Part shown: positions 2,273 through 17,059 of the stretch, one piece after another
Position numbering within the stretch: position 1 is the first letter of the stretch
Layout: every line of letters starts with the position of its first letter
NCBI GenBank assembly: GCA_029245725.1
Contig: JAQWOT010000358.1
Span: 689-64,688, forward strand
Length of the DNA: 64,000 nt
Direction: 5' to 3'
Origin: SAR324 cluster bacterium
GTDB taxonomy: Bacteria; SAR324; NAC60-12
The notes under the pieces: model-generated
The model's input: only the letters and a program-made list of their open reading frames with translations
Database searches by the model: none
What the model was told of the DNA's origin: nothing
Position numbers and translations under genes: made by a program

Positions 2273-3340
2273 ATGATGGAAATTGCTTTCCCGATGATGG
2301 TCTCCACTTCCATAGAAGCCGTGTTGATGTTCATCGACCGGCTTTATCAAAAGCAGGTCAGTCCAGAAGTGATGAATGCCTGCTTGAGCTGAGGCTTTAC
2401 ATCCCTTGCCCTAAATCTCCTTTTTCATTGGCATCATTGGCTATAGTACGGCTCTGGTTGCCTAGTATTTGGGTGCTAGGAAACGTGCAAACTGTCCCAG
2501 AGTTCTAACCCAAAGTGTCTTGTTAAGCTGTCTAAGTTCACCTGTAATTCTTACCCTCATTCCAGCCGGCAGATGGGTTTTGGCTACTTCAGGACTCTCT
2601 AATACAGAGGCAGCGCAAGCACAGACCTACCTCACTATTTTAATGGCTGGTGCAGGGATGGACCTATTTCGACACAGCTTGCACAGCTACTTTGGAGGGT
2701 CAGGCAAAACCAGATTTGTGCTGTTATCGACTTTCGTCATGACCATTTCGAATATCGGAGTAAACTACGTGCTAATTTTGTGAAGCTTGGATTCCCTGCG
2801 CTCGGAATTTCTGGGGCTGGTTATGGAACAGTGTTCACCTAGTTTATGGGCGTGGTCACGTTGTGCGTTTTCTACTTCAAGCAGATTCAACTTCCATAAT
2901 GCCAACTTCTGGATAGCTTTCAGTCGGATCTGGAAATTCTAAAAAACTGGTCCACTTTGGATTTGCCAGGGGTCTGTGTATCAACCTACTGATTTTCGCT
3001 GTTGATCTGATGATTCTCACTTTTCAGTCCTACGGAGTCGCTGTTTCTAAAGCCATCACAATAATTTTCACCTAGTTTCAAACTCTTTTCATCCCAGTGA
3101 TTGGTCTGGAGATTGACACTATGAGCCTGGTAGGACGCTTTGTCGGAGCGCACGATGCGGACTCTGCTTCAGACTCCGTATTGGCCGGGCTTCTCCTAGA
3201 AACTAGCTATCCTCTAATCATCTCTCTAATCAGTTTCTTGCTACTCCTGCATTGATCGGAGTGTTTTTGGAATCGAATTCCTCCTCATCAATTCAGAATC
3301 TAGTGATATGGGGAACCCACCTTAATGCCTTCATGATGTT
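2273..3340 (+). pseudogene. MATE efflux family pseudogene
   Basis: Fragments across frames: MEIAFPMMVSTSIEAVLMFIDRL, NIGVNYVLI, LGFPALGISGAGYGT, SLVGRFVGA; several stops and frameshifts; truncated where the integrase remnant begins. Confidence 0.75.
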
Positions 3341-4020
3341 CATCCTTCACTCTTGGCAACTTGCTCATCACGTTTCTCCAACAAAGAACTCATCGCTTCC
3401 TGAGCCTTGTTAGCAATACTCTGCTGGGCTGCAGGGATGAACTTGGCGTAACGCTTGGTCATCGGTGAGCCAGGGGCATGTCCCAGTTGATGGGCGACTT
3501 CAGCTAAGGTGGCTCCATTTGACAACATCATTGAGGCAACTGTATCTCGCAGACAGTAGTTCGGCCTAAATTCTTTTGGGATGCCAGAGAGAGCTCTCAG
3601 TTGGCTGAAACGCTTCTTCAAACTATCCAATCTGCACAAACCACCATCACTCGCTGGAAAGACAAGAGAACTCCCCTGCAATTCTGCTGAACTATTATTC
3701 AATAGTTCCCTTTGAAGCAAGAGCACCTCACGAACCTTCTCATTCATCAGCTGGATCACCATCGTGCCACTCTTGGTATCCCGCTTGGTATATCCTTCGA
3801 CCAAAATCAACCTCCTTCCAGAGCAGCTTAAGTGCCTCCGAGGGCCTGGATCCCGTCCAGCCAATGAATTGATGTAGATGTAAAAGTTGGTGGTCCGAAT
3901 AAGATTCCCACACTCGCTGTAGGTTCTGGAACTGTTCTGGGCTGGGTACTTCAATGCGCTCACTGTTCGGGTCTTGTTTGGGGAGTTCAATCGCCCAGTC
4001 GAGAGCTGGACAATGATTCT
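3340..4020 (-). pseudogene. Tyrosine recombinase/integrase remnant, copy 1 (catalytic domain only, frameshifted)
   Basis: GWTGSRPSEAL (box I) in one frame; YCLRDT...LGH...TKRY (box II) in another; N-terminal part absent. Confidence 0.85.
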
Positions 4021-4148
4021 CATGTGATCCGAAGTTGATAAGACAACTTAATTGTTCGAACAAGCTGTAAAAGAGAAGCCTCTTGGACATAAATTTTCAC
4101 TTGTAGTAGCAAAATATCTTCTAAATACATGATTTAATTTATTTTTAA

Positions 4149-4211
4149 TTGTATACATTAACAATTGTCATTGTATAACAAGCTTGACAACTTAATTGAA
4201 ATTATTAATAA
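4149..4211 (+). promoter_or_regulatory. Putative promoter with tandem GntR-type operators
   Basis: TGTATACA palindrome at 4150-4157, TTGTATAACAA at 4171-4181, TTGACA at 4184-4189 followed by an AT-rich -10-like region; upstream of an operon ending in a GntR gene. Confidence 0.45.
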
Positions 4212-4429
4212 AAGGATTTTTCTAACCATACGTTAGAATTTCCAAAATCCTAGTCTCTTAGAGGGATGTATGCTTGATTCGGACTGAAATTTGTCGATCA
4301 ATACTACAATTCCACGCATCGTCGGGTCTGAGACAGTTTGCCTAATTGAAAGTAAGACTAGTCTTGGCACCAACAAATAAGTGATCTCTAAGAATCTAGA
4401 ATTAACAATACTATCTAATAGAGGTAGCA

Positions 4430-5401
4430 ATGAAGAGAATCGTACTTGCCATTGGGTTAGTTTTAGCAGTATTCGGCTTCAACAGTGCTGCTGTGGGTGC
4501 TGCCGAGTTCCCGGAAGAAACAATTACAATTATTTGTAATTGGTCACCGGGGGGAGGTCAAGACACAGTATCAAGACTGATTGCGAAGTATGCGAGTGAG
4601 AGAGCTGGGGTACCTGTTGTAGTCAATAATGTAACTGGTGCAGCCGGTGCTGCAGGGGTTAGATTTGCAGCTGAAGCAACCCCTGATGGTTACACGGTTG
4701 GGATTATAGGATCTAGCTTTGTAGCAAGAAACTATAGCAATGCAGAAGCAACAGAATTGAGCGAAATTGAGCCGCTGGCATTCTTTGGACCTGACCCGGG
4801 AGCTCTAACAGTCCGAGCTGATACAGGAATAAATTCGCTTAGCGAGTATTTTGATAAAATAAAATCAAATCCTGGGGATCTGATGAATGGTAACGATCCA
4901 CCTGGAGGATCATCAGCCGTTGTTGCATCACTGATTGAGAGTACATTTGATGTGAATATGTCTCAGGTCCCTTATAAAGGATATGCGGCAACAAAAGCCG
5001 CACTATTATCTGGAGAGGTTCAATCAGCAACGCTTCCTGTTGCTCAAGTGTCTGAAGAACACAAGGCAGGAAGTTTGAAAATACTGGGCGTCACATCAAC
5101 CAAAAGGCATTTCAAAGCTCCAGATGTTCCAACATTTGCAGAACAGGGGTTTGAGCTAGTAGCGGGCGACTGGCGAGCTTTGTTTGTGCCCAAAGGAGTG
5201 CCCTACATGAGGCGAATGGTTTTGGAAGATATCTTTCTAAAAACTATGATGGATCCTGAATTCATGAAAGCCGCTGAGACAGCAGGCTATGTGGTAACAC
5301 CGATGAACTCTGTAGATACACTCGGTGCAATAAATAATCATGACCAAAACGTATATCCAATTCTATTGGAAGCCGGTCTAGTCACTCAAAGGAAAAAATA
5401 A
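4430..5401 (+). CDS. tctC: Tripartite tricarboxylate transporter substrate-binding protein (Bug/TctC)
   Basis: Signal peptide, FPEETITIICNWSPGGGQD, PYKG, PDVPTFAEQG motifs; followed by TctB and TctA genes. Confidence 0.92.
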   Translation: MKRIVLAIGLVLAVFGFNSAAVGAAEFPEETITIICNWSPGGGQDTVSRLIAKYASERAGVPVVVNNVTGAAGAAGVRFAAEATPDGYTVGIIGSSFVARNYSNAEATELSEIEPLAFFGPDPGALTVRADTGINSLSEYFDKIKSNPGDLMNGNDPPGGSSAVVASLIESTFDVNMSQVPYKGYAATKAALLSGEVQSATLPVAQVSEEHKAGSLKILGVTSTKRHFKAPDVPTFAEQGFELVAGDWRALFVPKGVPYMRRMVLEDIFLKTMMDPEFMKAAETAGYVVTPMNSVDTLGAINNHDQNVYPILLEAGLVTQRKK

Positions 5402-5411
5402 TTAAAGGAAG

Positions 5412-5432
5412 GGGGAGTGGAACTCACTCCCC
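5412..5432 (+). terminator. Perfect 8-bp stem-loop after the binding-protein gene (attenuator or mRNA stabiliser)
   Basis: GGGGAGTG-GAACT-CACTCCCC between tctC and tctB. Confidence 0.7.
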
Positions 5433-5441
5433 TAATACGAA

Positions 5442-5915
5442 ATGAAGAAGATTAATTATGAAGTACTGACTGTTGCAGTAGTAACGGGGGTGTTTGCAGT
5501 TGCTGGCTGGTATTCCATTTTTGATAGATTCGAGTTAGTAGAAGGAATATATAAAACTAATGACCCAGGTGCCGGATTACTACCTCTCATTCTGTTATCA
5601 ATCTTAAGTATATCCTCAATAACATTCCTCACCCAAATAAAAGCAGAGAACGGACGTTCCTTGAAAGAAGTTTTTCATTCTGCAAACTTACCTCTTCTAC
5701 TTAGTATTCTTCTAGTTATCATCGTTTTTTTGACAAAGTTCTTGGGATATTTATTAACAATCAACGGATTAACAATTCTGTGGTTTCTTCTTTATGGTAA
5801 ACTTAGAAATGAAGATAAAAAGAAATTATTTATAAATACTATATTCATGATTCTTATAGTAAATAGTGTAGTTTATTTATTTTTTATGAAGTTATTGAAT
5901 ACGCCTTTACCATAA
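5442..5915 (+). CDS. tctB: TTT small membrane subunit TctB
   Basis: 157 aa, about 4 TM, DPGAGLLP motif, ends ...NTPLP; stop overlaps tctA start. Confidence 0.85.
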   Translation: MKKINYEVLTVAVVTGVFAVAGWYSIFDRFELVEGIYKTNDPGAGLLPLILLSILSISSITFLTQIKAENGRSLKEVFHSANLPLLLSILLVIIVFLTKFLGYLLTINGLTILWFLLYGKLRNEDKKKLFINTIFMILIVNSVVYLFFMKLLNTPLP

Positions 5916-7390
5916 TGCTTTTAGAACGTTTTTTTATAAGTAGTATTCAGATTTTAACGAACCCTGAAACATTACTACTGTCAGTTATCGGGGTAGCACT
6001 TGGAATAGTATTGGGAGCAATTCCTGGTATCAGCAGTACAATGACGTTGGCGATACTACTTCCAGTGAGTTTTTATCTTGATCAGAATTCCGCAATGGTA
6101 TTTCTGATGGCAGTTTTCTCCTCAAGTGTTTTTGGGGGTTCCATATCGGCAATTCTTCTAAATATACCCGGTACACCAGGAGCAATAGTAACTCAAATTG
6201 ATGGCTTCCCACTAGCAAAAAAGGGCAAAGGTGGGTATGCGCTAGCTTATGCTCTGTTTTCTTCATCTGTAGGAGGCTTAGTTGGCTTATTGATATTGAT
6301 GCTCTTAGCACCAGTTATTATCAAAAGTGCTATGAATTTCAGGAGCCCCGAATTTGCAGCAGCAGCTCTATTTGGTCTAGCAATGTTAGCATATTCAACA
6401 CCTGGCTCAACATACAGGGGGATAGTCATTGGAGTTCTTGGAGTGATTTTAGGGATGGTCGGTTTTGATAATATGACCGACATGCTTAGATTTGATTTCA
6501 GAACAGAGTTTTTACAAAATGGAATCAATTTAGTCCCATTATCGATTGGGCTATTTGGTATGTCAGAAATCCTGAAAAATATAGAAACCTCAAAGGATTC
6601 TGAAAAATTACCAAATATTGGAAACATATTTCCACCATTCTCAAGTGTAATAAAAACATGGAAAAGTATATTTCGAGGATCAATTTTTGGTGTGTTCATT
6701 GGGGCAATTCCAGCTGCAGGCTCAGCGATCGCAGTTGCAATCTCTTATGCTCAAGAAGTGAAGTTAGCGAAAGATAAATCAGAATTTGGTAAAGGTGATA
6801 TACGAGGTATTGTTGCACCAGAATCAGCAAATAACGCTTGTGTAGGAGGTGCTCTCATTCCAATGATGACGTTAGGGATTCCAGGAGATACGATGACTGC
6901 CGTATTGATGGCATCCCTCTTAATACATGGTTTGCAGCCTGGCCCGTTTTTATTCCAGAACAATCCCCAATTCGTTTCCGTCGTTTATGCATCACTGTTC
7001 ATAGCAATTATCCTTACACTCCTACTTGGATTTTTCTTAATCAGATTTATAGTCAAGGCGTTGAATGCACCCACAACGATAATCAATTTTACAATTATTG
7101 TTCTATGTCTTACTGGATCCTTTGCCATTAGAAATTTAATCAGTGATGTCTTCATAATGATTTTCTTTGGTGTTCTAGGATATTTATTTTACAAAATAAA
7201 TTTACCGACAGCACCTCTAGCATTTGGACTTATACTTGGTCCAGTTTTAGAAGAAAATCTCCGGAGAAGTCTAATTATTAGTCGAGGATCGTGGTTAATC
7301 TTTTTGGAGCGTCCAATATCGTTATGTTTGGTAGTAATTACCCTAATTGTTCTTTTATTACCTTTGATAAAATTTAAAAATAGGCAATAA
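5915..7390 (+). CDS. tctA: TTT large membrane subunit TctA
   Basis: GAIPGIS, GGSISAILLNIPGTP, APESANNA, MMTLGIPGD signature motifs. Confidence 0.95.
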   Translation: MLLERFFISSIQILTNPETLLLSVIGVALGIVLGAIPGISSTMTLAILLPVSFYLDQNSAMVFLMAVFSSSVFGGSISAILLNIPGTPGAIVTQIDGFPLAKKGKGGYALAYALFSSSVGGLVGLLILMLLAPVIIKSAMNFRSPEFAAAALFGLAMLAYSTPGSTYRGIVIGVLGVILGMVGFDNMTDMLRFDFRTEFLQNGINLVPLSIGLFGMSEILKNIETSKDSEKLPNIGNIFPPFSSVIKTWKSIFRGSIFGVFIGAIPAAGSAIAVAISYAQEVKLAKDKSEFGKGDIRGIVAPESANNACVGGALIPMMTLGIPGDTMTAVLMASLLIHGLQPGPFLFQNNPQFVSVVYASLFIAIILTLLLGFFLIRFIVKALNAPTTIINFTIIVLCLTGSFAIRNLISDVFIMIFFGVLGYLFYKINLPTAPLAFGLILGPVLEENLRRSLIISRGSWLIFLERPISLCLVVITLIVLLLPLIKFKNRQ

Positions 7391-7392
7391 AA

Positions 7393-8529
7393 ATGGATTT
7401 TAATTATCAGAAAAAAAACAAATATTTTGACAGTCTGATTAGTAATAAAAATCTAATGTGGATGGGTCAAAATACAAACCATATCCCTTCTCATGAAGCT
7501 GTAAAAGAGAGTTTAATAAAGTCAATCCATGATGAAGAGTACCATGTATACGCACCACCACTTGGGTTGGAAGAATTAAGAGAGCTAGTTTTAGTCCACC
7601 TGAATTTGAAACAGAATGATTGTTTTATTACTGATGGCGCAGTTTCAGCCTTATCTAATGTTTGTAATTCATTAATTGGTGAAGATGATGAGTTTTTGAC
7701 GACGGACCCAACATGGATCTGGCCAACTTTATTTACGAAGCAGTCTGGAGGTTTTGTAACCCAAATACCTATATATGGTCATCATACTAATTTTAAAGTC
7801 AAAGCTTCTGACATTGAAAAACATATAACCCCAAAAACTAAAATTTTGTACTTGGTTGATCCAAACAATCCTTTGGGTACTACCATTGATGAATCAGAGG
7901 TTGAAGCGATAGCCAAAATAGCAAAATCAAATAATATTTATATCTTACATGACTGTACCTACCGTGACTTTGCATATAATCACACATTTTTTAATCACTT
8001 CTATCCTGAGGGTACGATCACAATTTGGAGCTTTTCCAAGTGGCTTGGTATTGCAGGCTTGCGCGTGGGTGCTCTGTTATCAACGCCACATCTCATCGAA
8101 AAACTTTCCAAGTGTCCACCAAATATTCTAGGCTCAAATATTATCTCACAGAGAGGTGCTATTGCTGGGCTTAAGCATTTTGCAGAGTGGTTTCCTGAAG
8201 TGAATTCAATTCAACGTAATAATCAACGAATTATATATGAAAGTATTCAAAATGTTGATGAACTCTCGATGCCCATTTTCCCTTCTGACTCCAATTTTGT
8301 TATTGTTGAAATGAATAGTTCTGAAATTTCACCCGAATCACTGACAAAATCATTTCTTGAAAAGAATATTATGATCCGTCAAGGAAGTTATCATAGCGAA
8401 AAATTTGGACATAAATTTGTTAAAATAAGTCTAACTGTACCAACAGATTGGGCGGAATCTTTCGCATATTTTCTTCCAGATAGAATTACTGCTGCCAAAA
8501 ATTTCAATAATGATACTGATTTATTCTGA
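7393..8529 (+). CDS. PLP-dependent aminotransferase, class I/II
   Basis: DPNNPLG, HDCTY, SFSKWLGIAGLRVG (PLP lysine) motifs. Confidence 0.9.
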   Translation: MDFNYQKKNKYFDSLISNKNLMWMGQNTNHIPSHEAVKESLIKSIHDEEYHVYAPPLGLEELRELVLVHLNLKQNDCFITDGAVSALSNVCNSLIGEDDEFLTTDPTWIWPTLFTKQSGGFVTQIPIYGHHTNFKVKASDIEKHITPKTKILYLVDPNNPLGTTIDESEVEAIAKIAKSNNIYILHDCTYRDFAYNHTFFNHFYPEGTITIWSFSKWLGIAGLRVGALLSTPHLIEKLSKCPPNILGSNIISQRGAIAGLKHFAEWFPEVNSIQRNNQRIIYESIQNVDELSMPIFPSDSNFVIVEMNSSEISPESLTKSFLEKNIMIRQGSYHSEKFGHKFVKISLTVPTDWAESFAYFLPDRITAAKNFNNDTDLF

Positions 8530-8536
8530 GTAGTAT

Positions 8537-9319
8537 ATGGATTTAAATTTACAAGGTAAGAGAGTTTTAGTTACTGGTGCATCTAAAGGAATTGGACATG
8601 GACTTGCCTATACACTTGCTAGTGAGGGGGCTCATCTATATTTAGTTGCTCGCAGCGAGCAACTGCTTCGAGAAATGCAAACTCAGCTTACCGAGAGCCA
8701 CGATATTGATGTCCAAATCTTTTCTCTTGATATCAAAAACCTTGAATCAATTGAAAATTTAAAGCTTGAATGTGCTGATACCGATATTCTTGTCAACAAT
8801 GCTGGTGATATACCTAGTGGTAATCTCTTTGATGTTGATGATACGAAATGGCGTGAAGGTTGGGATTTGAAGGTTCATGGTTACATTCGTATGTGTAGAA
8901 TCTTCTATAAAGTCTTCAAGGAAAGAGGATCTGGAGTAATACTTAACAATATTGGTAATGGTGGTGAGATTTTTGACTCGCGCTACATAGCTGGAGTATC
9001 TGGGAACGCATCTCTTATTGCGTTTACCAAGGCTTTAGGTGCAACTAGTCTTAATGATAATATTCGTGTACTTGGTGTTAATCCTGGTCCTGTAAACACT
9101 GAGAGAATTTTTAAAATGTTGAGGAAACGGTCTTTTGATCTCTTTGGCACAGAAGATCGGTTTAACGAACTTGCGCAAAAATATCCCTTATCACGACCTG
9201 CACACATTAATGAAGTCACAGATGCAATAGCATTTTTGATCTCAGATCGTGCCAGTTATATTTCGGGATCCATTCTAACAATTGATGGTGGAATATCATC
9301 CAATAATTCAATCGTATGA
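8537..9319 (+). CDS. Short-chain dehydrogenase/reductase
   Basis: TGASKGIG, NNAG, GVNPGPV, IDGG motifs; lacks a canonical YxxxK. Confidence 0.9.
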   Translation: MDLNLQGKRVLVTGASKGIGHGLAYTLASEGAHLYLVARSEQLLREMQTQLTESHDIDVQIFSLDIKNLESIENLKLECADTDILVNNAGDIPSGNLFDVDDTKWREGWDLKVHGYIRMCRIFYKVFKERGSGVILNNIGNGGEIFDSRYIAGVSGNASLIAFTKALGATSLNDNIRVLGVNPGPVNTERIFKMLRKRSFDLFGTEDRFNELAQKYPLSRPAHINEVTDAIAFLISDRASYISGSILTIDGGISSNNSIV

Positions 9320-10203
9320 AAAATTTTAAAGTTAGCACTTCTGACAATGTTGAGCTGGATTGTAATATTTCAGGAGAAGGCATCCCACTTGTCTTTGTAC
9401 ATGAATTTGGTGGTGACCAGCGTAGTTGGCAGAATCAAGTAAATTATTTTTCTCGCAAATACCAATGTATCACTTTTAATGCACGTGGATATCCACCATC
9501 TGAAGTCCCTAGTTCTGTCGAGTCCTATTCTCAAAGCCGCGCTGTCGAAGATATAATTGATGTTTTAGATTATTTGAAAATCGATGCAGCGCACTTTGTG
9601 GGGCATTCGATGGGTGGATTCGCCGTTTTGCACTTATTAATCAATTATTCACGAAGAGCTATTTCGGCTTCTATAGTTGGGGTTGGTTATGGTGCAGAGA
9701 AACAACACGAAGACTACTTTCGAGGTGTTTCAACAAATGTTGCCAAGCAATTTCTCGAATTAGGAAGCGAAAAGTATTCTCATATTTACGGATCAGCTGC
9801 ATCAAGAATTCCTTTCCAAGTTAAAGATCCCGTTGGTTGGAATAAATTCAGACATAGACTCGGACAGCACTCCATGATTGGGGCTAGTAATACAATGCTT
9901 GGTGTGCAGGCCCACCGTCCATCACTTTATGATTTAGTGACAGAGCTATCTAACATTGAAACACCGTTGTTTATCGTCATTGGGGACGAAGATGATCATT
10001 GCCTACAGACGAGTCTATTTTTGAAGAGCACAGTAAAATCATCTGGATTATTAATTCTACCAAAGACTGGGCATACAGTACCTTCTGAAGAGCCTGGTAT
10101 GTTTAATTCCCATCTTTCAGAATTCTTTTCATTAAATGAGCTTTCCAGGTGGCCAAATCGTGATCCGAGATCAAACCCCATGGAAATCATGAAGATTAGC
10201 TGA
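9316..10203 (+). CDS. Alpha/beta-fold hydrolase
   Basis: FVHEFGGD oxyanion region, GHSMGG nucleophile elbow, GDEDD and GHT catalytic motifs. Confidence 0.9.
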   Translation: MKNFKVSTSDNVELDCNISGEGIPLVFVHEFGGDQRSWQNQVNYFSRKYQCITFNARGYPPSEVPSSVESYSQSRAVEDIIDVLDYLKIDAAHFVGHSMGGFAVLHLLINYSRRAISASIVGVGYGAEKQHEDYFRGVSTNVAKQFLELGSEKYSHIYGSAASRIPFQVKDPVGWNKFRHRLGQHSMIGASNTMLGVQAHRPSLYDLVTELSNIETPLFIVIGDEDDHCLQTSLFLKSTVKSSGLLILPKTGHTVPSEEPGMFNSHLSEFFSLNELSRWPNRDPRSNPMEIMKIS

Positions 10204-11453
10204 TGCTTGAGAAAATTATTGAATCCGTAAATCTTGCTCGTCTAGTTGAGAGGCACGATTTACTTGCAAAGTGTACAACTGAATCATCCTTGGGGGTCAA
10301 TAGACAAGCTCTCTCCCTTGAGGATATAAATGCTCGTAAATTGTTGATTCAGTGGGCAGAAATGATTGATATGCAGGCATTTACTGATGCTGCATCAAAT
10401 CTCTTTTTGCGATATGAAGGCAAGTTTCCCGATCTACCACCTGTTATTGCTGGTTCTCACATAGATAGTCAACCTACTGGTGGAAAGTACGACGGAGTAT
10501 TTGGTGTCCTGTCTGCGCTTGAGGTTGCTGAATCATTCTACAAGAATCAGTTCAAACCTGATCACTCATTTGAGGTTGTATGTTGGATGAACGAAGAAGG
10601 CTCTCGTTTTGCTCCTGGTATGATGGGTTCTTCAGTATTTTCTGGCTACAAATCACTCAATGATATTATTGATATTGTCGACGATGATGGATTTTCTATA
10701 GCATCAGGGATTGAATACGTTCGTTCAGCCCTACCCTCAGTGCCTATCAGGGAGTTTGGTTTCCCAATCAAATGTTATTTAGAACCGCACATTGAGCAAG
10801 CACCATTCTTGGAAAGAGCAGATGTTGTTATTGGTGCCGTTAAAGGCATGCAAGGCAAAAAAACCTTCGCAGTTACTGTAACTGGCCGGGCTGATCATGT
10901 TGGAACTGTCCCGTTGTCTGAGCGCGATGATGCCCTTCTGTGTGCAACTCAAATCATGCACCAGTTGTATTCTGCAGTCATCAATGATGATGAAGATGTG
11001 AAATTTACCATTGGTAAGCTTATTGTTGAGCCAAATGCACCTTCAGTAGTACCCAGTAAAGTTACCTTTTCTATTGATCTGAGACATCCTCACCAATCAC
11101 CCCTTGATCACTATGAATCCTTAATAATTGCAGTAATTAGCAAATACAGCTCTAAAAAATCAGTCAAATTAACTCCCCTAGTAGATGATCCTGTCATAGA
11201 ATTTCCAACTGAGTTAATCTCATCAATTATATTTGCGGCTAAGGAACTCGGGATATCATCTACAACAATTCTTTCCCTAGCTGGTCATGATTCAAAATTT
11301 CTTCATAAGATAACTCCAACTGGAATGATATTTATTCCTTGTTCTGAGGGAATAAGTCATAATCCAGCTGAAGCAGTTCACCCAGATCATCTCTTTGATG
11401 GCACTCGTGTTCTATGTCACACGCTTTATCATCAACTTCAGTTAAGTAGATAG
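10203..11453 (+). CDS. M20 Zn-dependent amidohydrolase (N-carbamoyl-amino-acid/allantoate amidohydrolase family)
   Basis: GSHIDSQPTGGKYDG, NEEGSRF, EPHIEQ, AGHD, SHNPAE motifs. Confidence 0.92.
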   Translation: MLEKIIESVNLARLVERHDLLAKCTTESSLGVNRQALSLEDINARKLLIQWAEMIDMQAFTDAASNLFLRYEGKFPDLPPVIAGSHIDSQPTGGKYDGVFGVLSALEVAESFYKNQFKPDHSFEVVCWMNEEGSRFAPGMMGSSVFSGYKSLNDIIDIVDDDGFSIASGIEYVRSALPSVPIREFGFPIKCYLEPHIEQAPFLERADVVIGAVKGMQGKKTFAVTVTGRADHVGTVPLSERDDALLCATQIMHQLYSAVINDDEDVKFTIGKLIVEPNAPSVVPSKVTFSIDLRHPHQSPLDHYESLIIAVISKYSSKKSVKLTPLVDDPVIEFPTELISSIIFAAKELGISSTTILSLAGHDSKFLHKITPTGMIFIPCSEGISHNPAEAVHPDHLFDGTRVLCHTLYHQLQLSR

Positions 11454-11460
11454 TCGAATA

Positions 11461-12150
11461 GTGAATATTTCAATCAGTAACTACGCAAATAAGCCAAAAA
11501 ATACCACTATCACTAACTGGATTACGTCTGCACTCGAAAAATCAATTATCGAAGGCAAGCTTAAACTTGGCACAAAAATAGATGAAATCAGCCTTGCTAA
11601 CGAATTTGATGTTTCAAGAACACCTGTCCGTGAAGCACTTCAAAACCTGGCAGCTGCAGAATTGATTGATCTTAAACCTCGACATGGGGCAGTTGTCAAA
11701 AAACTTCAACTTTCTGAAATTATTGAACTCTTTGAATTAATGGCTGTACTTGAAGCAACTGCAGCTAAATTCGCTGCTCTGAGGATGTCTAATGAGGAAC
11801 TGCAAGTTATAAAAGTTGCGCACGAAAAATGCCGCGCTGCAGCTTTGGAGAATGATATTGATCTTTTCTATAACCTAAATTTTGAATTTCATAGATGTGT
11901 ACATGCTGCATCTCGAAATCGATCTCTCCAGAAGCATGCCTACTCAATTGATTTAAGATTAAAGCCTTATCGCAGGCTTATTACATTTCGAAAAGGCAGA
12001 GTTGTGAATTCAATTGCTGAGCACGATCTCATTATGAATGCTCTGAGTGATAGAGATGAACAATTAGCTTACGAATCAATGTTTAATCACCTCCAAATTC
12101 TTTCAACTGATGCGGTGTTGATCGCATCTGCCCTTGAAGAATCTAATTAA
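11461..12150 (+). CDS. GntR family regulator (FCD domain)
   Basis: LANEFDVSRTPVREAL winged HTH; FHRC and EHD FCD motifs. Confidence 0.93.
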   Translation: MNISISNYANKPKNTTITNWITSALEKSIIEGKLKLGTKIDEISLANEFDVSRTPVREALQNLAAAELIDLKPRHGAVVKKLQLSEIIELFELMAVLEATAAKFAALRMSNEELQVIKVAHEKCRAAALENDIDLFYNLNFEFHRCVHAASRNRSLQKHAYSIDLRLKPYRRLITFRKGRVVNSIAEHDLIMNALSDRDEQLAYESMFNHLQILSTDAVLIASALEESN

Positions 12151-12253
12151 TCAATCTTCTTGAGTCAAAACTCTTTATCATAATTTACCCATTCAACTAT
12201 CTTCTGTTTGGCATCTTTCAAAGAGTCTCAATTCTTATCCTTTCCAAGCCATT

Positions 12254-13320
12254 TTAAAGAGATTCCAATTCCTCTTCGAAACTATAATCTATATCAAATC
12301 TATCTGGTGTCTTCTCCTGACACATGTTTGCCTCCAACCCTTTTGAGTCTAACAAAGTAATCATCGCCTCCTGAGCCTTGTTAGCAATGCTTTGTTGAGC
12401 AACTGGAATGAACTTGGTGTAGCGCTGGGTTATTGGGGAGCCTGGGGCATGTCCTAACTGGTAAGCAACTTCAGCTAAGGTGGACCCGTTTGATAGCATC
12501 ATCAAAGCAATCGTGTCTCGTAGGCAGTAATTTGGTCTGAACTCTTTCGGGATGCCAGCTAGATCCCTTAATTGGCTGAAACGCTTCTTCAAACTATCCA
12601 ATCTGCGCAATCCACCACCACTTGCCGGAAAGGCATAAGCACTCTCCCGCAATTCTGCTGAACCACTATTCAGAAGTTCCCTTTGCTGCAACAGCACCTC
12701 ACGAACTTTCTCATTCATCGGCTGAATCAACATCTTGCCACTCTTGGTATCACGCTTGTTGTAGTTCCCGCGATCAAAATCAATATCCTTCCAGAGCAAC
12801 TTAAGTGCTCCTGAAGGCCTTGATCCTGCCAGCCAATGAATTGATGCAGGTGTGAAAGTTGGTGGTCCGGATAAGATTTCCATACCTGCTGTAGGTTCTG
12901 GAACTGTTCTGGGCTAAGAACTTCAATACGCTCACTGTTCAGGTCTTGTTTGAGGAGTTCAATCACCCAGTCGAGAGCCGGACAATGACGCTGGCGAACT
13001 CCATAGTTAATGATGTGGCGTAGCAGCTCTAGTACGTTGCGGGTAGTTGCGCTGCTATGCGCTTTGGCAACCTGCCTACACAATCACTCGACATCTAGCA
13101 GGACTAATTCCTGTGTTGTATTGTTCCCAACGGGTTTTCGTAAGTGGAGATCAAAGCGATTCTTATCCGTTACTACCCCCTTGAGTTGATTGCCTTTGCT
13201 CTCGAGGTAAAGCTCTCAAAGCCTCTCAATAGTGGGACAAGAGTCTGCGGTCCGTTTAGCTTCTGCTTGGGCTTGTCACCGTTCGCTATTGGTCAGTACT
13301 TGCCCATTAATCCACCTTGT
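12254..13320 (-). pseudogene. Tyrosine recombinase/integrase remnant, copy 2 (more complete; stops and a frameshift)
   Basis: One frame reads RWINGQVLTNSER*..PTIERL*ELYLESK..DKNRFDLHL..VE*L..LELLRHIINYG; frameshift in box I; YCLRDT/LGH/RY box II; clear nucleotide paralog of 3340-4020. Confidence 0.85.
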
Positions 13321-13719
13321 TCTCTCTGGGTCTGCAGGGTCTTCTGGTCGCGCTCTTCTTGCGGAGTTCACAAGTAGTTCAAGAGTGCTTTCTCGTATCA
13401 ATAGTCTGCTAGAGACAAGACCACCACAGCTATAAGCAAATTTACAGTAGGTCTTGTGACGGCTGCCTTCAGAAGCAGACCCAATCTGCTGAAGACCTTG
13501 CTGAAGGGACTGCTCGGCAGAAGCAGTTATCAGATTGTTTAGTGGTTCTTCAAATAAGTCTTCAGTGGACTCAGTAGAATCGGCGGGGTTATCAACAACT
13601 GTTACTGGAGGCTTTGCAGAATCTTTAGTTGACTGGGCAACAGGCCTCAGATGCCCTTGAAGCCTCTGGATTGATCTGCAACAAGAATTCAGTGACTGGA
13701 GAAACGCAGCCTTCCCAAA
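13321..13719 (-). pseudogene. Fragment resembling a primase C-terminal helical domain, in frame with the integrase remnant
   Basis: IGSASEGSRHKTYCKFAYSCGGLVSSRLL...LLVNSA resembles the EGxRN/H..GGLV pattern of mobile-element primase proteins; recognition by eye only. Confidence 0.4.
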
Positions 13720-13963
13720 TTACATCAGGATTTCGTTTTGGAGTTTCTGTAAGAACCACCAGGGGGTTCTAGGAGAAAGAATCCACCATGATTGGTGAAT
13801 AGATTGCAGAAGTTCTCAAAGCTCTTTCAAATGAGGAAAAATGAAAATAATTTCTAACTCAATCAATAGAAAAGTTCTAGAACTGATCCGAGAATTTATG
13901 ATTTATGAAAACCAATCCTGATATGAAACCAAGAATCTTCTTTTTTCGAACATCCTTTAGACA

Positions 13964-15601
13964 ATGAACAAAACATACGACTTCATCATTGTAGGAGGTG
14001 GTTCTGCAGGATGTGTTTTGGCAAACCGTCTCAGCGAAAACCCTGAAAACCAAGTATTATTGTTGGAAGCGGGCAGACCGGATTCAATTTGGGACATTTT
14101 TATCCACATGCCTGCCGGACTGTCAATGCCTATTGGTAACCGTTTCTACGACTGGATTTATGAAACTGAACCGGAACCCTTCATGAACAGGCGTAGAATC
14201 TACCAAGGCCGGGGGAAAGTCTTGGGGGGTTCCAGCAGCATCAACGGCATGATTTTCCAACGCGGAAATCCACAGGATTACGAACGCTGGGCGGCCGATC
14301 CAGGTATGGAGGAATGGGACTACGCGCATTGCCTGCCATATTTCAAAAAGATGGAAAACTGTCTGACTGGAGGAGACGATTTCCGAGGGGATCAAGGACC
14401 ACTCAAATTGGAAAGAGGTCCTGCTTCAACCCCATTGTTTCAGGCTTTTTTCCAGGCAGTCCAACAGGCAGGATTCGAACTGACAAACGATGTTAATGGT
14501 TTCCGTCAGGAAGGATTTGCTGCCTTTGATAAGAATGTCTTCCGGGGAAGACGCCTCAGTGCAGCTAGAGCTTATCTTCATCCTGTGATGAATCGACCCA
14601 ACCTCAAAGTAATCTGCCGTGCCCACGCATTATGCATACGTTTTGATGGTAAAAGGGCTGTAGGTGTGGATTTCAGACACAAAGGGCAAACCATAAGCGT
14701 TCAAGGTGGAGAAATCATCAGCTGTGGCGGCGCCTTCAATTCTCCTCAACTACTACAGCTTTCCGGGATCGGGAACCCGAATGACCTTAAGCCCCTGGGT
14801 ATCGAAATAGTTCACGAACTTCCAGGAGTGGGAGAAAACCTGCAGGACCATCTAGAGGTATATGTGCAGCATGCATGCACCCAACCGGTTTCGATGCAAC
14901 CTGCACTCCGTTGGTGGAATAAACCTTGGATCGGCCTCCAGTGGCTTTTCTTTCGAGAGGGCCCTGCAGCCACTAATCATTTTGAAGCAGGAGGGTTCGC
15001 GCGAAGTAATGATGAGGAGTCTTACCCAAACCTGATGTTTCATTTTCTGCCTCTCGCGATCCGCTATGATGGGACCTCTCCAACTGGAGGACATGGGTAC
15101 CAGGTTCATATCGGACCAATGTTTTCCAATTCCCGTGGTTCAGTAAAAATTAATAGTAAAGATCCCTATGCCAAACCATCTTTGAGGATGAATTATCTTT
15201 CCACCCCCGAGGACCAAAAAGAATGGGTGGAAGCCATTCACTGCGCAAGGAAGATTCTTGGACAATCTGCGTTTGATGAGTTCAGCGGGGGTGAAATATC
15301 TCCAGGACCTTCAGTCGACTCTGATGAAGAAATCCTCGAATGGGTTCGAAGAGATGGAGAAACCGCCTATCATCCCTCCTGCAGTTGTGCCATGGGAACT
15401 GGGACTCAATCCGTAGTGGACCCAAAAAGTTTCAAGGTTCATGGCATGGAAGGAATTCGTGTCGTGGATGCCTCAGCCATGCCCTATGTACCCAATGCCA
15501 ACATCAATGCCCCGATCCTGATGCTCGCCGAAAAAGCTGCTGACCTCATTCTTCAAAACACACCACTGACTAAGCAAGCTCAGGAATTTTATCGGGCTTG
15601 A
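13964..15601 (+). CDS. betA: Choline dehydrogenase (GMC oxidoreductase)
   Basis: [42 protein letters not shown] motifs and BetA-like IHMPAGL and LPLAIRYDG segments. Confidence 0.8.
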
Positions 15602-15802
15602 TCCAAATTCATTTAATGATAAAAAAAGATGGCCAGGCGAAGTAGAATTCTTAACTGTATCTACCAGTATTTAAAGATGTGCTCAATATAGTAGCCTCAA
15701 TAATTCTAGGCGGTTACTTTAGGGGGGAATTGTCCCTAAGTGTTGCTAACGCTATCATTTTCAGTTGATAGTTATCAACACTTTAACAATATGGGTTTCC
15801 AT

Positions 15803-17059
15803 TCAGAAATCGAACTTTGGCAGATGTGCCGTGCCAAGAACCATACTTTCTCGACGAAGCTTCTCTCCCTGACTATGAATCTGGCCAATGTTTTGAACAC
15901 CCAGCAGTTCCATGGAACGAATCAAATCTTCCTTTACCAATTCAAAGGCTCGGCTGATACCCATGTGACCACCAGCTCCAAGACCACCAGCAACCACTCT
16001 GCCTAAACCCACGGCTTTGAGGCCATAGCTCAGCCCAACAAGAACATCTAACCCGCTTCGGATTCCTCCATCCATTGCGCAATCAAGCTTAGATCCTGCT
16101 GCATGCAATTTAGGCATTGCTTCCGCTACAATTTGTAAAGAAGGTATTGCCTGACCTAACTGGCGGCCACCGTGGTTGGAGAAAATCACTCCAGTTGCTC
16201 CTAATTCTTCCGCTTTCAATGCATCCTCAGCACAGTGAACACCTTTGACAATAAGTGGCTGCTCACCCCATGCTTCTTTGATCCAAGAGAGATCACTCCA
16301 AGTTACAGCTGAGGCCGCAAGTTGCTCGCCTATACCGGCATAAGGCATTGGCTCTCCCCGCTCATTTATTACATTGACAAAAGGCAGCATTCCACCATCT
16401 TGCCAGTGCCTCCATAACCACCCAGTTCGAGGAATCATTTGCGGGGCAAGCTTCATTTTGTGAAATGCGCGCGCTATCTTTTTTGGTCCAGAAAAAATTG
16501 AGCTCACTGCAACCATGGGTTTCATCCGCGCATGTGCAATTCTATCCCCTGATACCGCAGTATCAATTGTCAGCACCAGTGCTGAAAATCCTGCATCTCT
16601 TGCCCGTTTTATACCCCTTTTAGCTGTTTCAACTCCCCCACACAGATAAAGTTGGAACCACTTTGGACCACTTGAAGCTTCCGCTACTTCTTCCATGGGA
16701 GTCTGTGAGAGAGTTGAAAGCGTAGTGGCTGTTCCAAATTCTCCTGCAACTTGGGAGACGACCGCGTCGCCCTTGGGCCACAATGTTCGAAGGCTACCAA
16801 CTGGAGCTGTAAAAAAAGGTACAGAAAGCTCATGGCCAAATATTTCAGTCTTTGTCTCAATTGTTTTGTGTTTGACAGCACCGTGAGGCGCAAGCATCAC
16901 CTGTTGAAAAGCTAACACATTTGACTTCAATGTAGTCAAGCTACCTGCACCTCCAATAAAATATTCAGCTGCAATTGGAGGAACTTCCTTCAGCATTATT
17001 TGCCATATGTCTGCTGTAGTCAGAGCGTCAGCAATTTCGTTCTCTCGAATCCGAAACAT
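15803..17059 (-). CDS. FMN-dependent alpha-hydroxy acid dehydrogenase/oxidase
   Basis: WFQLY, LTIDT, VKG, SNHGGRQL, DGGIRSG motifs. Confidence 0.92.
   Translation of the reverse strand: MFRIRENEIADALTTADIWQIMLKEVPPIAAEYFIGGAGSLTTLKSNVLAFQQVMLAPHGAVKHKTIETKTEIFGHELSVPFFTAPVGSLRTLWPKGDAVVSQVAGEFGTATTLSTLSQTPMEEVAEASSGPKWFQLYLCGGVETAKRGIKRARDAGFSALVLTIDTAVSGDRIAHARMKPMVAVSSIFSGPKKIARAFHKMKLAPQMIPRTGWLWRHWQDGGMLPFVNVINERGEPMPYAGIGEQLAASAVTWSDLSWIKEAWGEQPLIVKGVHCAEDALKAEELGATGVIFSNHGGRQLGQAIPSLQIVAEAMPKLHAAGSKLDCAMDGGIRSGLDVLVGLSYGLKAVGLGRVVAGGLGAGGHMGISRAFELVKEDLIRSMELLGVQNIGQIHSQGEKLRRESMVLGTAHLPKFDF

Follow-up and report, generated by a model that had tools for sequence, protein, structure and literature searches.

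Which compound is taken up and degraded by the products of a compact gene cluster in a SAR324 cluster bacterium? The cluster occupies positions 4430-12150 of a 64,000-nt stretch of contig JAQWOT010000358.1 (assembly GCA_029245725.1; positions 689 to 64,688, forward strand), and this whole stretch is referred to as the window. A preliminary description had read the cluster as a self-contained, AT-rich operon of eight co-oriented genes, coding for the import and degradation of a ureido-, amide-, or heterocycle-derived acid. Three results agree with this reading: one of the enzymes belongs to the ureido-cleaving M20 hydantoinase/carbamoylase family, a four-enzyme block is conserved along with its GntR regulator and the presumed operator, and neighbouring genes in other genomes are of the ureide or pyrimidine type. 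We consider it likely that the module catabolises a ureido or cyclic-ureide compound.

All eight genes were found as intact open reading frames (ORFs) in the same direction on the forward (+) strand, and every previously named gene family was confirmed with Pfam and NCBIfam models. The first three genes code for a tripartite tricarboxylate transporter (TTT): tctC (4430..5401; PF03401, 137 bits vs. a threshold of 27) for the periplasmic solute-binding protein, which has a signal peptide, tctB (5442..5915; PF07331, 44.5 bits vs. 29.1) for the small membrane subunit, and tctA (5915..7390; PF01970, 458 bits vs. 28.9) for the large one. They are followed by genes for a pyridoxal phosphate (PLP)-dependent class I/II aminotransferase of the PRK06225 type (7393..8529; NF004870, 432 bits vs. 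a cut-off of 351), an atypical NADP-type short-chain dehydrogenase/reductase (SDR) of the PRK06125 type (8537..9319; NF004779, 357.9 bits vs. 261), a predicted alpha/beta-fold serine hydrolase (9316..10203; PF00561, Abhydrolase_1), an M20 hydantoinase/carbamoylase amidase (10203..11453; TIGR01879, 331 bits vs. 204), and a GntR regulator with an FCD domain (11461..12150; PF00392, 55.7 bits; PF07729, 82.9 bits). The gene junctions, in order from tctC to GntR, are +40, -1, +2, +7, -4, -1, and +7 nt, so that those from tctB onward, already described as overlapping or very short, range from -4 to +7 nt.

A conserved block of four enzymes and a GntR regulator

The aminotransferase served as the marker for finding related loci. 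In a pattern scan with one genome per species, relatives of this enzyme were found to be encoded in at least 521 species. Loci from 80 of these species were inspected, and 83 non-redundant loci proved readable; an ORF/GC3 heuristic was used for gene calling in GC-rich loci. The genes for aminotransferase, SDR, hydrolase, and M20 enzyme lie within 6.5 kb in 72 of the 83 loci (52 of the 56 loci that have enough flanking sequence), which confirms that they co-occur elsewhere, and they share the same direction in 66 of the 83. An orthologous GntR protein (35-45% identity) is encoded at most 9 kb from the block in 65/83 loci. The four-enzyme grouping is far beyond chance, and the conserved functional unit consists of the four enzymes and GntR. 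Carriers belong to the Alpha-, Beta-, and Gammaproteobacteria and include Bosea, Microvirga, Bradyrhizobium, Mesorhizobium, Methylobacterium, Ancylobacter, Bordetella, Caballeronia, Trinickia, Arenicellales, and marine metagenome-assembled genomes.

The preliminary description had treated all eight genes as the unit. This stands for the four enzymes and GntR but not for the importer, since only the transporter varies among the loci and the TTT system is one of at least five interchangeable types. ATP-binding cassette (ABC) importers of the ThiY/NMT1 type, which are of two kinds, occur in 24 and about 11-15 loci, a Liv-type ABC importer in 11 loci, an anion-type carrier of the major facilitator superfamily (MFS) in 7 loci, and a BMP nucleoside ABC importer on rhizobial plasmids. 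A TctA protein with at least 50% identity is encoded within 9 kb of the marker aminotransferase in 8 loci. The TctA of the window is 60-73% identical to block-linked TctA proteins at other loci, and its TctC is 75% identical to that of locus L001 and 48-55% identical to TctC proteins encoded beside the same enzyme block elsewhere. The nearest solved structures of TctC are Bug27, BugD, and TphC, all at about 105 bits. Self-contained versions, which consist of transporter, four enzymes, and GntR alone, exist not only in the window but also with the MFS and the SBPa type of transporter, so the four enzymes should suffice to process the compound.

A full-text literature search returned no published description of the gene set, and we found no characterised operon that matches it; the preliminary description, too, had not recognised it as a described pathway. 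None of 14 model organisms has an aminotransferase orthologue above the NF004870 cut-off, and the PGAP annotation of plasmid-borne copies is generic throughout. Generic annotation and absence from model organisms may be the reason why no paper describing the set was found.

The regulator has the features of the FadR/FCD class, namely an N-terminal GntR winged helix-turn-helix domain, a C-terminal FCD domain, and a palindrome of the T.GT...AC.A type nearby. Intergenic regions of the orthologous loci share a FadR-type palindrome, T[TG]G[TC]AT[AG]C[AC]A, for example TTGGCATGCCAA or TTGTATACAA. Across 78 orthologous loci, it is enriched 46-fold upstream of the first core gene (0.73 vs. 0.016 sites per kb), and 19 of these loci have at least one exact site. 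In the window, the region ahead of tctC (4147..4182, + strand) carries AATTGTATACATTAA at 4147-4161, with a perfect TGTATACA core at 4150, followed by an imperfect copy, TTGTATAACAA; a -35-like TTGACA hexamer lies just downstream of the two sites at about 4183. We regard these palindromes as putative GntR operators, and the GntR/FCD protein is presumably the repressor of the operon. It would probably bind the TTGTATACA-type palindrome upstream of tctC and be released by the substrate or an intermediate.

Expansion of the regulon by searching five carrier genomes for exact TTGGCATGCCAA gave only two sites outside the cluster. They were judged to be sites of paralogous regulators and hence uninformative. 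One of them, in Bosea sp. Root483D1 (L094, at about 7918), is upstream of an operon for NAD-dependent formate dehydrogenase. The other, in an Ancylobacter sp. (L095, at about 8035), is upstream of an operon coding for a GntR protein, oxalyl-CoA decarboxylase (oxc), and formyl-CoA transferase (frc); this GntR protein is 30% identical to that of the window. Either an FCD paralogue that uses the same operator or a connection to the metabolism of oxalate and formate may explain both sites.

Enzymes, proposed pathway, and rival explanations

The aminotransferase is a class-I (HisC/AspC-like) enzyme with a full PLP site and a C-terminal Arg: the PLP-lysine motif SFSK216W (S213-F-S-K216), D187, Y190, R224, and R329 are invariant in 15 homologues. 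Neither among solved structures, where the best match scores 83 bits, nor among characterised enzymes does it have a close relative.

The SDR retains TGxxxGIG, Arg39 (NADP-type site), and NNAG. It had been called atypical, and this is borne out by alignment to classical paralogues from the same genome: the positions of the Ser/Tyr/Lys triad are occupied by Gly/Gly/Asn, a replacement kept in 54 orthologues, which places the protein outside the classical class. The orthologues conserve NNIGN.GE..D..YIAG..GN, with E144, D147, and Y150 invariant. PRK06125 (NF004779) is a family without an assigned function. The AlphaFold 2 (AF2) model (pLDDT 85.7) resembles ordinary SDRs, with sorbose reductase and AerF as the nearest folds.

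In the hydrolase, the oxyanion-loop motif FVHEFGG stands where an HG motif is usual, and the HEFGG signature noted before is found in at least 90% of aligned orthologues. The presumed triad consists of the nucleophile elbow GHS98MGG, the Asp of GDEDDHC (D224-227), and the His of KTGHT (H253), all invariant in orthologues. Its AF2 model (pLDDT 88.7) matches esterases and lactonases with TM scores of 0.73-0.81; Est816, an N-acyl-homoserine lactone (AHL) lactonase, the enol-lactonase PcaD, and aryl esterases are the nearest folds, at about 20% identity. Elbow, acid, His, and modelled fold together identify it as a predicted alpha/beta-fold serine hydrolase. It scores below the equivalog cut-offs of RutD (60.5 vs. 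238.5), PcaD (67 vs. 256), and MenH (70 vs. 209). Structure searches with the AF2 models of SDR and hydrolase returned as neighbours only generic SDRs and esterases/lactonases at 20-31% identity.

The di-metal and catalytic motifs of the M20 enzyme (GSHIDSQP, NEEGSRF, EPHIEQ, GISHN) align with those of 4wjb, 5thw, and 8c46. Of the solved structures whose function is assigned, the last of these, an N-carbamoyl-beta-alanine amidohydrolase, is the nearest; the solved relatives also include yeast beta-alanine synthase. The enzyme scores below all product-named equivalog models (NF006771, 358 vs. 399; ErtE, 284 vs. 520; AllC, 203 vs. 598). The segment SRN(V/T)(I/V)P of the solved relatives is replaced by APSVVPS, which is conserved in at least 80% of 59 aligned orthologues; we take the Asn of this segment to bind the substrate carboxylate in characterised carbamoylases. 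By its sequence, the protein belongs to the ureido-cleaving hydantoinase/carbamoylase family, as had been proposed, and its site for the substrate carboxylate is altered.

Clues to the substrate come from the neighbourhood of the block. On plasmids of Rhizobium sp. CB3171 and ZPR3, a single co-directional run contains the genes for a BMP nucleoside ABC importer, aminotransferase, SDR, hydrolase, M20 enzyme, a nucleoside phosphorylase, and deoC, with a divergent phosphopentomutase gene upstream. The phosphorylase is uridine-phosphorylase-like (TIGR01718, 238 bits; only 88 bits with the DeoD model). A uridine-phosphorylase-like gene is found at most 10 kb from the block in 5 loci, and a nucleoside hydrolase is encoded near the block in Neorhizobium. 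The nucleoside-operon context in rhizobia suggests that the block degrades the base released from nucleosides. The binding proteins of both block-linked ABC types are closest to ThiY, 4NMY, and THI5; ThiY binds formylaminopyrimidine, and within the NMT1 family it is ThiY and THI5 that handle pyrimidines. Accessory genes code for an aldehyde dehydrogenase (14-19 loci), a cog0402 deaminase similar to 8-oxoguanine deaminase (10 loci), a three-component dehydrogenase with DAO, 2Fe-2S, and HcnB-like subunits (7-10 loci), a triple RidA (8 loci), a HIBADH-like reductase (6 loci), ATP-dependent HyuAB (3-4 loci), and dihydropyrimidinase (3 loci).

The block is extended to a single operon of up to about 11-12 genes in Arenicellales (L034, L037, L046, L077), Bosea and Ancylobacter (L035, L051, L060, L068), and Zavarzinia (L062, L069). 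This longer operon also codes for an aldehyde dehydrogenase, a ThiY-like ABC importer, a second NMT1/THI5-like protein apparently devoid of a signal peptide, and the DAO/2Fe-2S/HcnB-like dehydrogenase, which is of the opine-oxidase or D-hydroxyproline-dehydrogenase type. Three loci from marine Gammaproteobacteria (L030, L038, L083) have the aminotransferase and M20 genes adjacent to each other amid genes for HyuAB, GST, a TauD-like dioxygenase, and a true dihydropyrimidinase. The hydrolase gene is inverted in L030 and L038, and tblastn found neither hydrolase nor SDR in L083. These variants may represent an alternative ring-opening route.

Canonical genes were also looked for. Among 35 carrier genomes, PreA is encoded in 9, RutA in 2, dihydropyrimidinase in 23, and neither PreA nor RutA in 24. 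The share with PreA compares with 73/201 in the background order and with 3/7 for the carriers inside this background. Dihydropyrimidinase is absent from 3 of the 4 carriers searched that have a uridine-phosphorylase-like gene at most 10 kb from the block. In the genome that contains the island, tblastn detected no close dihydropyrimidinase, the best match being 27% identical.

As to the reactions, we tentatively propose a mechanism similar to reductive pyrimidine catabolism (Pyd), two steps of which would be catalysed by unrelated enzyme families; we see this as a possibility that falls somewhat short of probable. In the reaction order that we infer, a GntR-repressed catabolic operon would provide a four-enzyme core, and this would dismantle a pyrimidine-like cyclic ureide by the logic of the Pyd pathway. 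The atypical NADP-binding SDR would reduce a C=C (or C=N) bond of the ring, as does PydA, and the Ser-His-Asp hydrolase would take the part of PydB and open the reduced ring, yielding a linear N-carbamoyl (ureido) acid. This would be split by the M20 enzyme, in the role of PydC, into CO2, NH3, and an amino acid, the sole step that is backed by homology. The class-I aminotransferase would then, like PydD, move the last nitrogen to a keto acid, and the resulting oxo-acid or semialdehyde would be consumed by the optional aldehyde dehydrogenase or HIBADH-like enzymes. In the window, the substrate would enter via TctCBA, and such a dedicated importer argues for an anionic form, e.g., a carboxylated or ring-opened pyrimidine (orotate, dihydroorotate, or a beta-ureido acid). 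Elsewhere, the same block would be fed by ThiY-like ABC, Liv-type ABC, MFS, or nucleoside (BMP) importers.

Several observations were counted for this Pyd-like scheme. The SDR lacks the alcohol/ketone triad, has NADP motifs, and has gained three new invariant acidic or Tyr residues, which was taken to favour ring reduction; the classical triad is likewise altered in SDRs that reduce C=C bonds, e.g., enoyl and dienoyl reductases, and AerF is one of the nearest folds. The fact that the nearest folds of the hydrolase are ring-opening lactonases was taken to favour ring opening. Aldehyde dehydrogenase and HIBADH-like accessory genes fit a semialdehyde product, while accessory deaminase, dihydropyrimidinase, HyuAB, and RidA genes fit ring chemistry. 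The 24 of 35 carriers devoid of PreA and RutA also speak for it, as does the lack of dihydropyrimidinase in 3 of the 4 carriers mentioned above. Further points counted in its favour are the conservation of the block as a unit, the family and solved relatives of the M20 enzyme, the nucleoside-linked loci, the ABC binding proteins close to ThiY and THI5, and the palindrome enriched upstream of the block.

Other observations weigh against it. TTT systems and ACS-type MFS carriers are known for anions, and uracil and thymine are not anionic, so that these plain bases are an unlikely substrate of the version present in the window. The aminotransferase is of class I, with a conserved carboxylate-binding Arg, whereas known beta-alanine aminotransferases are of class III. 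The canonical pathway is apparently neither excluded nor tracked by the block, given the counts for PreA (9/35 vs. 73/201) and dihydropyrimidinase (23/35), which suggests a different and possibly modified substrate. In the M20 enzyme of the window, Ser replaces the carboxylate-binding Asn of characterised carbamoylases. The HcnABC/opine-oxidase-like dehydrogenase, co-operonic with the block in several lineages, is left unexplained by the scheme, and nucleoside-linked arrangements are a minority (about 6 loci). To our knowledge, neither an SDR-type pyrimidine reductase nor an alpha/beta-hydrolase dihydropyrimidinase has ever been described. We regard it as rather doubtful that the block provides reductive pyrimidine catabolism in a complete but non-homologous form, in which the triad-less SDR would be a flavin-free, NADPH-dependent C5=C6 reductase and the HEFGG hydrolase a metal-free dihydropyrimidinase. 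If this were true, more than 500 proteobacterial species would have two new enzyme activities acting on a nucleoside-derived pyrimidine, possibly a carboxylated or modified one.

An unlikely alternative to the Pyd-like scheme, but the least so of four, is a pathway for a carboxylated hydantoin, dihydroorotate, or an N-carbamoyl-alpha-amino acid. The TTT and MFS importers, which suit a carboxylate, would bring in dihydroorotate/orotate, 5-carboxymethylhydantoin, hydantoin-5-propionate, or a free N-carbamoyl-L-amino acid. Ring opening by the hydrolase and decarbamoylation by the M20 enzyme, which also resembles L-carbamoylases and ErtE, would release an L-alpha-amino acid (Asp, Glu, or a non-standard one), from which the aminotransferase would form a 2-oxo acid, with the SDR adjusting redox state or stereochemistry. 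A class-I aminotransferase with an invariant Arg329 suits an alpha-amino acid, and HyuAB and dihydropyrimidinase/hydantoinase genes adjoin those for aminotransferase and M20 enzyme in L030, L038, and L083. Yet Asp or Glu as the product would need no dedicated aminotransferase, and the M20 enzyme lacks the carboxylate-binding Asn of L-carbamoylases. Moreover, operons with genes for aldehyde dehydrogenase and HIBADH-like enzymes suggest a semialdehyde as the product, and the phosphorylase/deoC context is unaccounted for. That the block is a branch of purine-ureide degradation is very unlikely. Allantoate, which as an anion would suit the importer, or a related ureide would be processed by the M20 enzyme as an allantoate/ureidoglycolate amidohydrolase, ureidoglycine would be converted to oxalurate by the aminotransferase, and SDR and hydrolase would act on oxalurate. 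The top NCBIfam subfamily matches of the M20 enzyme are indeed named allantoate amidohydrolase, but both are below cut-off, and the enzyme is well under the AllC and UAH models (203 bits vs. a cut-off of 598). Known ureidoglycine aminotransferases are of class V rather than class I, which counts against this branch. BMP binding proteins often take purine nucleosides, which counts for it. The transamination of ureidoglycine is itself known in Bacillus and Klebsiella (references listed in PMC4016543). The deaminase neighbour resembles 8-oxoguanine deaminase, but the phosphorylase is of the uridine type and not the DeoD type, and cupin, allantoinase, and allantoicase genes are not conserved beside the block.

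The lactonase folds raise the equally remote prospect that an N-acyl amino acid with a lactone or ester, such as N-acyl-homoserine(-lactone) or pantothenate, is degraded. The hydrolase, whose top structural match is Est816, followed by PcaD, would open the lactone to an acid that, as a carboxylate, suits the TTT system. The M20 enzyme would act as an amidase for N-acyl-amino acids (or N-acyl-beta-alanine), and aminotransferase and SDR would metabolise the freed homoserine, beta-alanine, or hydroxy acid. Enzymes of the carbamoylase family do have a side activity on N-formyl and N-acetyl amino acids, but the M20 family is essentially ureido-specific and the identity to lactonases is only about 20%. 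In addition, the ThiY-like proteins, the uridine-phosphorylase-like enzyme, dihydropyrimidinase, and the cog0402 deaminase would be without a role. Least probable of all, we consider, is a heteroaromatic carboxylate derived from a cofactor, either the thiamine pyrimidine (4-amino-2-methylpyrimidine-5-carboxylate, from aminomethyl- or formylaminomethyl-pyrimidine) or pterin-6-carboxylate. In some lineages, the HcnABC-like dehydrogenase and the aldehyde dehydrogenase would make this carboxylate from an aminomethyl or secondary-amine precursor, and the cog0402 enzyme would deaminate it; this group includes pterin and aminopyrimidine deaminases. In Arenicellales, Bosea, Ancylobacter, and Zavarzinia, the ThiY/THI5-like periplasmic and cytosolic proteins, a ThiO-like DAO subunit with 2Fe-2S/HcnB-like partners, and the aldehyde dehydrogenase are indeed co-operonic with the block, and the TTT and MFS importers suit an anionic heterocycle. 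On the other hand, a 2-methylpyrimidine would yield an acetyl or amidine fragment and not the carbamoyl group cleaved by M20 enzymes, the chemistry is speculative, with no oxygenase for the aromatic ring, and no thiamine pyrophosphate riboswitch or other Rfam element was found in the region.

Vitamin B6 degradation, which involves an aminotransferase, an SDR, a lactonase, and acetamidomethylene-succinate hydrolase, was dismissed, since an oxygenase is lacking and neither of two solved enzymes, pyridoxamine-pyruvate aminotransferase and pyridoxal 4-dehydrogenase, showed similarity.

Pyrimidines, ureides, and related nitrogen-rich heterocycles are a major source of recyclable organic nitrogen in soil and sea. 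We rate as new the replacement of enzyme types in ureide or pyrimidine catabolism, the general kind of pathway being known already. If the Pyd-like scheme is true, it adds two new chemistries, ring reduction by an SDR and ring opening by a Ser-hydrolase, and offers a candidate route for those carriers, approximately two thirds, in which PreA and RutA are both missing. Even with a different substrate, the module is a compact, testable target that comprises four enzymes, one repressor with a defined putative operator, and five alternative binding proteins.

The island and its genomic setting

The cluster is a horizontally acquired island, since two decayed integrase copies flank it and 40 relatives lack it. 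The remnant on the left (3340..4090) and that on the right (12254..13083) are both on the reverse (-) strand, match PF00589, and represent tyrosine recombinases (phage integrases) broken by frameshifts, the frame of the left one being split into two ORFs. They are direct-repeat partners (repeat families D1-D3), with about 660 nt being 80-85% identical between 3377-4039 and 12348-13011, at a distance of about 8.97 kb. The marker aminotransferase was absent in all 40 sampled relatives (8 from the same genus, 16 from the same family, and 16 from the same order). The term self-contained in the preliminary description is thus justified, and so is AT-rich: the GC content of the island is 38.5%, vs. 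a mean of 46.0% (sd 3.2) for 7.7-kb segments of the genome, only 1.6% of which are equally low. The island shows that the module moves horizontally as a ready-made cassette of importer, pathway, and regulator.

Its closest relatives are metagenomic contigs on which the order tctCBA-aminotransferase-SDR-hydrolase is kept, with 94%, 83%, and 58% identity at the aminotransferase. Of the alignment columns with at least 95% conservation in orthologues, the window proteins deviate in 6/94, 1/59, 12/103, and 7/93, and GntR in 0/27. From this near-complete retention, the island genes look functional. With respect to translation (5427-12150 of the window), only tctC has a Shine-Dalgarno sequence (GAGG), and none is recognisable within 15 nt of the other start codons of the island; at four of the downstream junctions, the genes overlap or are 2 nt apart, and this points to translational coupling or to initiation independent of such a sequence. 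No match to an Rfam element (riboswitch or other RNA control) was obtained for positions 3000-14000.

The host assembly comprises 4.4 Mb in 407 contigs (45.5% GC). Each of the four island enzymes is single-copy in this genome, distant paralogues aside. A second M20 enzyme of the hydantoinase/carbamoylase type (35% identical) is encoded on contig C303 (at about 15238-16428), which also codes for another SDR apparently devoid of the classical Tyr/Lys (836-1606). A SelB-like selenocysteine elongation factor is encoded on contig C144. The EF-Tu of this organism is a singleton at 90% identity in a collection of 15 billion proteins, which indicates that the organism is poorly sampled.

Just to the left of the left integrase remnant is a MatE fragment (104 aa, 2469-2783) from an apparently truncated MATE efflux gene, which may mark the gene where the element inserted. 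An intact EamA-family transporter gene (1198-2079) is also found on this side. Directly to the right of the island, at 13964-17059, are a GMC-family FAD oxidoreductase (choline-dehydrogenase-like) and, convergent to it, an FMN-dependent alpha-hydroxy-acid dehydrogenase; both have normal genome GC and are outside the island.

Comparison with known systems

The extended Pyd pathway, from PydA to PydE, has the same steps as those proposed here (PMC7332683). The likeness lies in the number and logic of the steps (reduce, open the ring, decarbamoylate, transaminate) and in the homology between the M20 enzyme of the island and M20-type beta-ureidopropionases. The optional aldehyde dehydrogenase and HIBADH-like genes could handle a semialdehyde, and nucleoside uptake and a uridine-phosphorylase-like gene are associated with the block in some genomes. 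In contrast to the Pyd pathway, the island has neither a flavin/Fe-S PydA (PreAT) nor a PydB from the amidohydrolase superfamily but a triad-less SDR and a Ser-hydrolase instead, its aminotransferase is of class I rather than class III, and its importer is of the TTT type, which suggests an anion. Furthermore, the block coexists with canonical PreA or dihydropyrimidinase in some carriers. The island can only be a functional analogue of the canonical Pyd pathway and not a member of it.

With the Rut system of E. coli (RutA-G), the block shares an alpha/beta hydrolase (RutD) and, in 8 loci, a neighbouring RutC-like RidA; an end product of the malonic-semialdehyde type is plausible. It differs from this system by the lack of the RutA monooxygenase, the RutF reductase, and the isochorismatase-type amidase RutB. 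Hydantoin utilisation (HyuH or HyuAB with HyuC/AmaB) has an M20 enzyme of the same family (TIGR01879), and in a few loci HyuAB or dihydropyrimidinase is encoded beside the aminotransferase and the M20 enzyme of the block. In the block, however, the usual ring opener is replaced by the alpha/beta hydrolase, aminotransferase, atypical SDR, and GntR are the fixed partners of the M20 enzyme, and Ser is found in place of the Asn that binds the carboxylate in characterised carbamoylases.

The importer has the three-gene tctCBA architecture of TTT systems, with all three subunits above the Pfam thresholds. Binding proteins of such systems take citrate (TctC), aspartate (BugD), nicotinate (Bug27), or terephthalate (TphC). 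Unlike these, the TctC of the island has a ligand that is not assignable by sequence, and it represents a TctC subgroup that is specific to the neighbourhood of the four-enzyme block (at least 8 loci). Judged at the sequence level, the products of the island fall into the TTT, M20 carbamoylase, alpha/beta-hydrolase, class-I aminotransferase, and GntR/FCD families. The island does not belong to the canonical Pyd, Rut, or hydantoin systems, because their defining enzymes are absent or far under the cut-offs.

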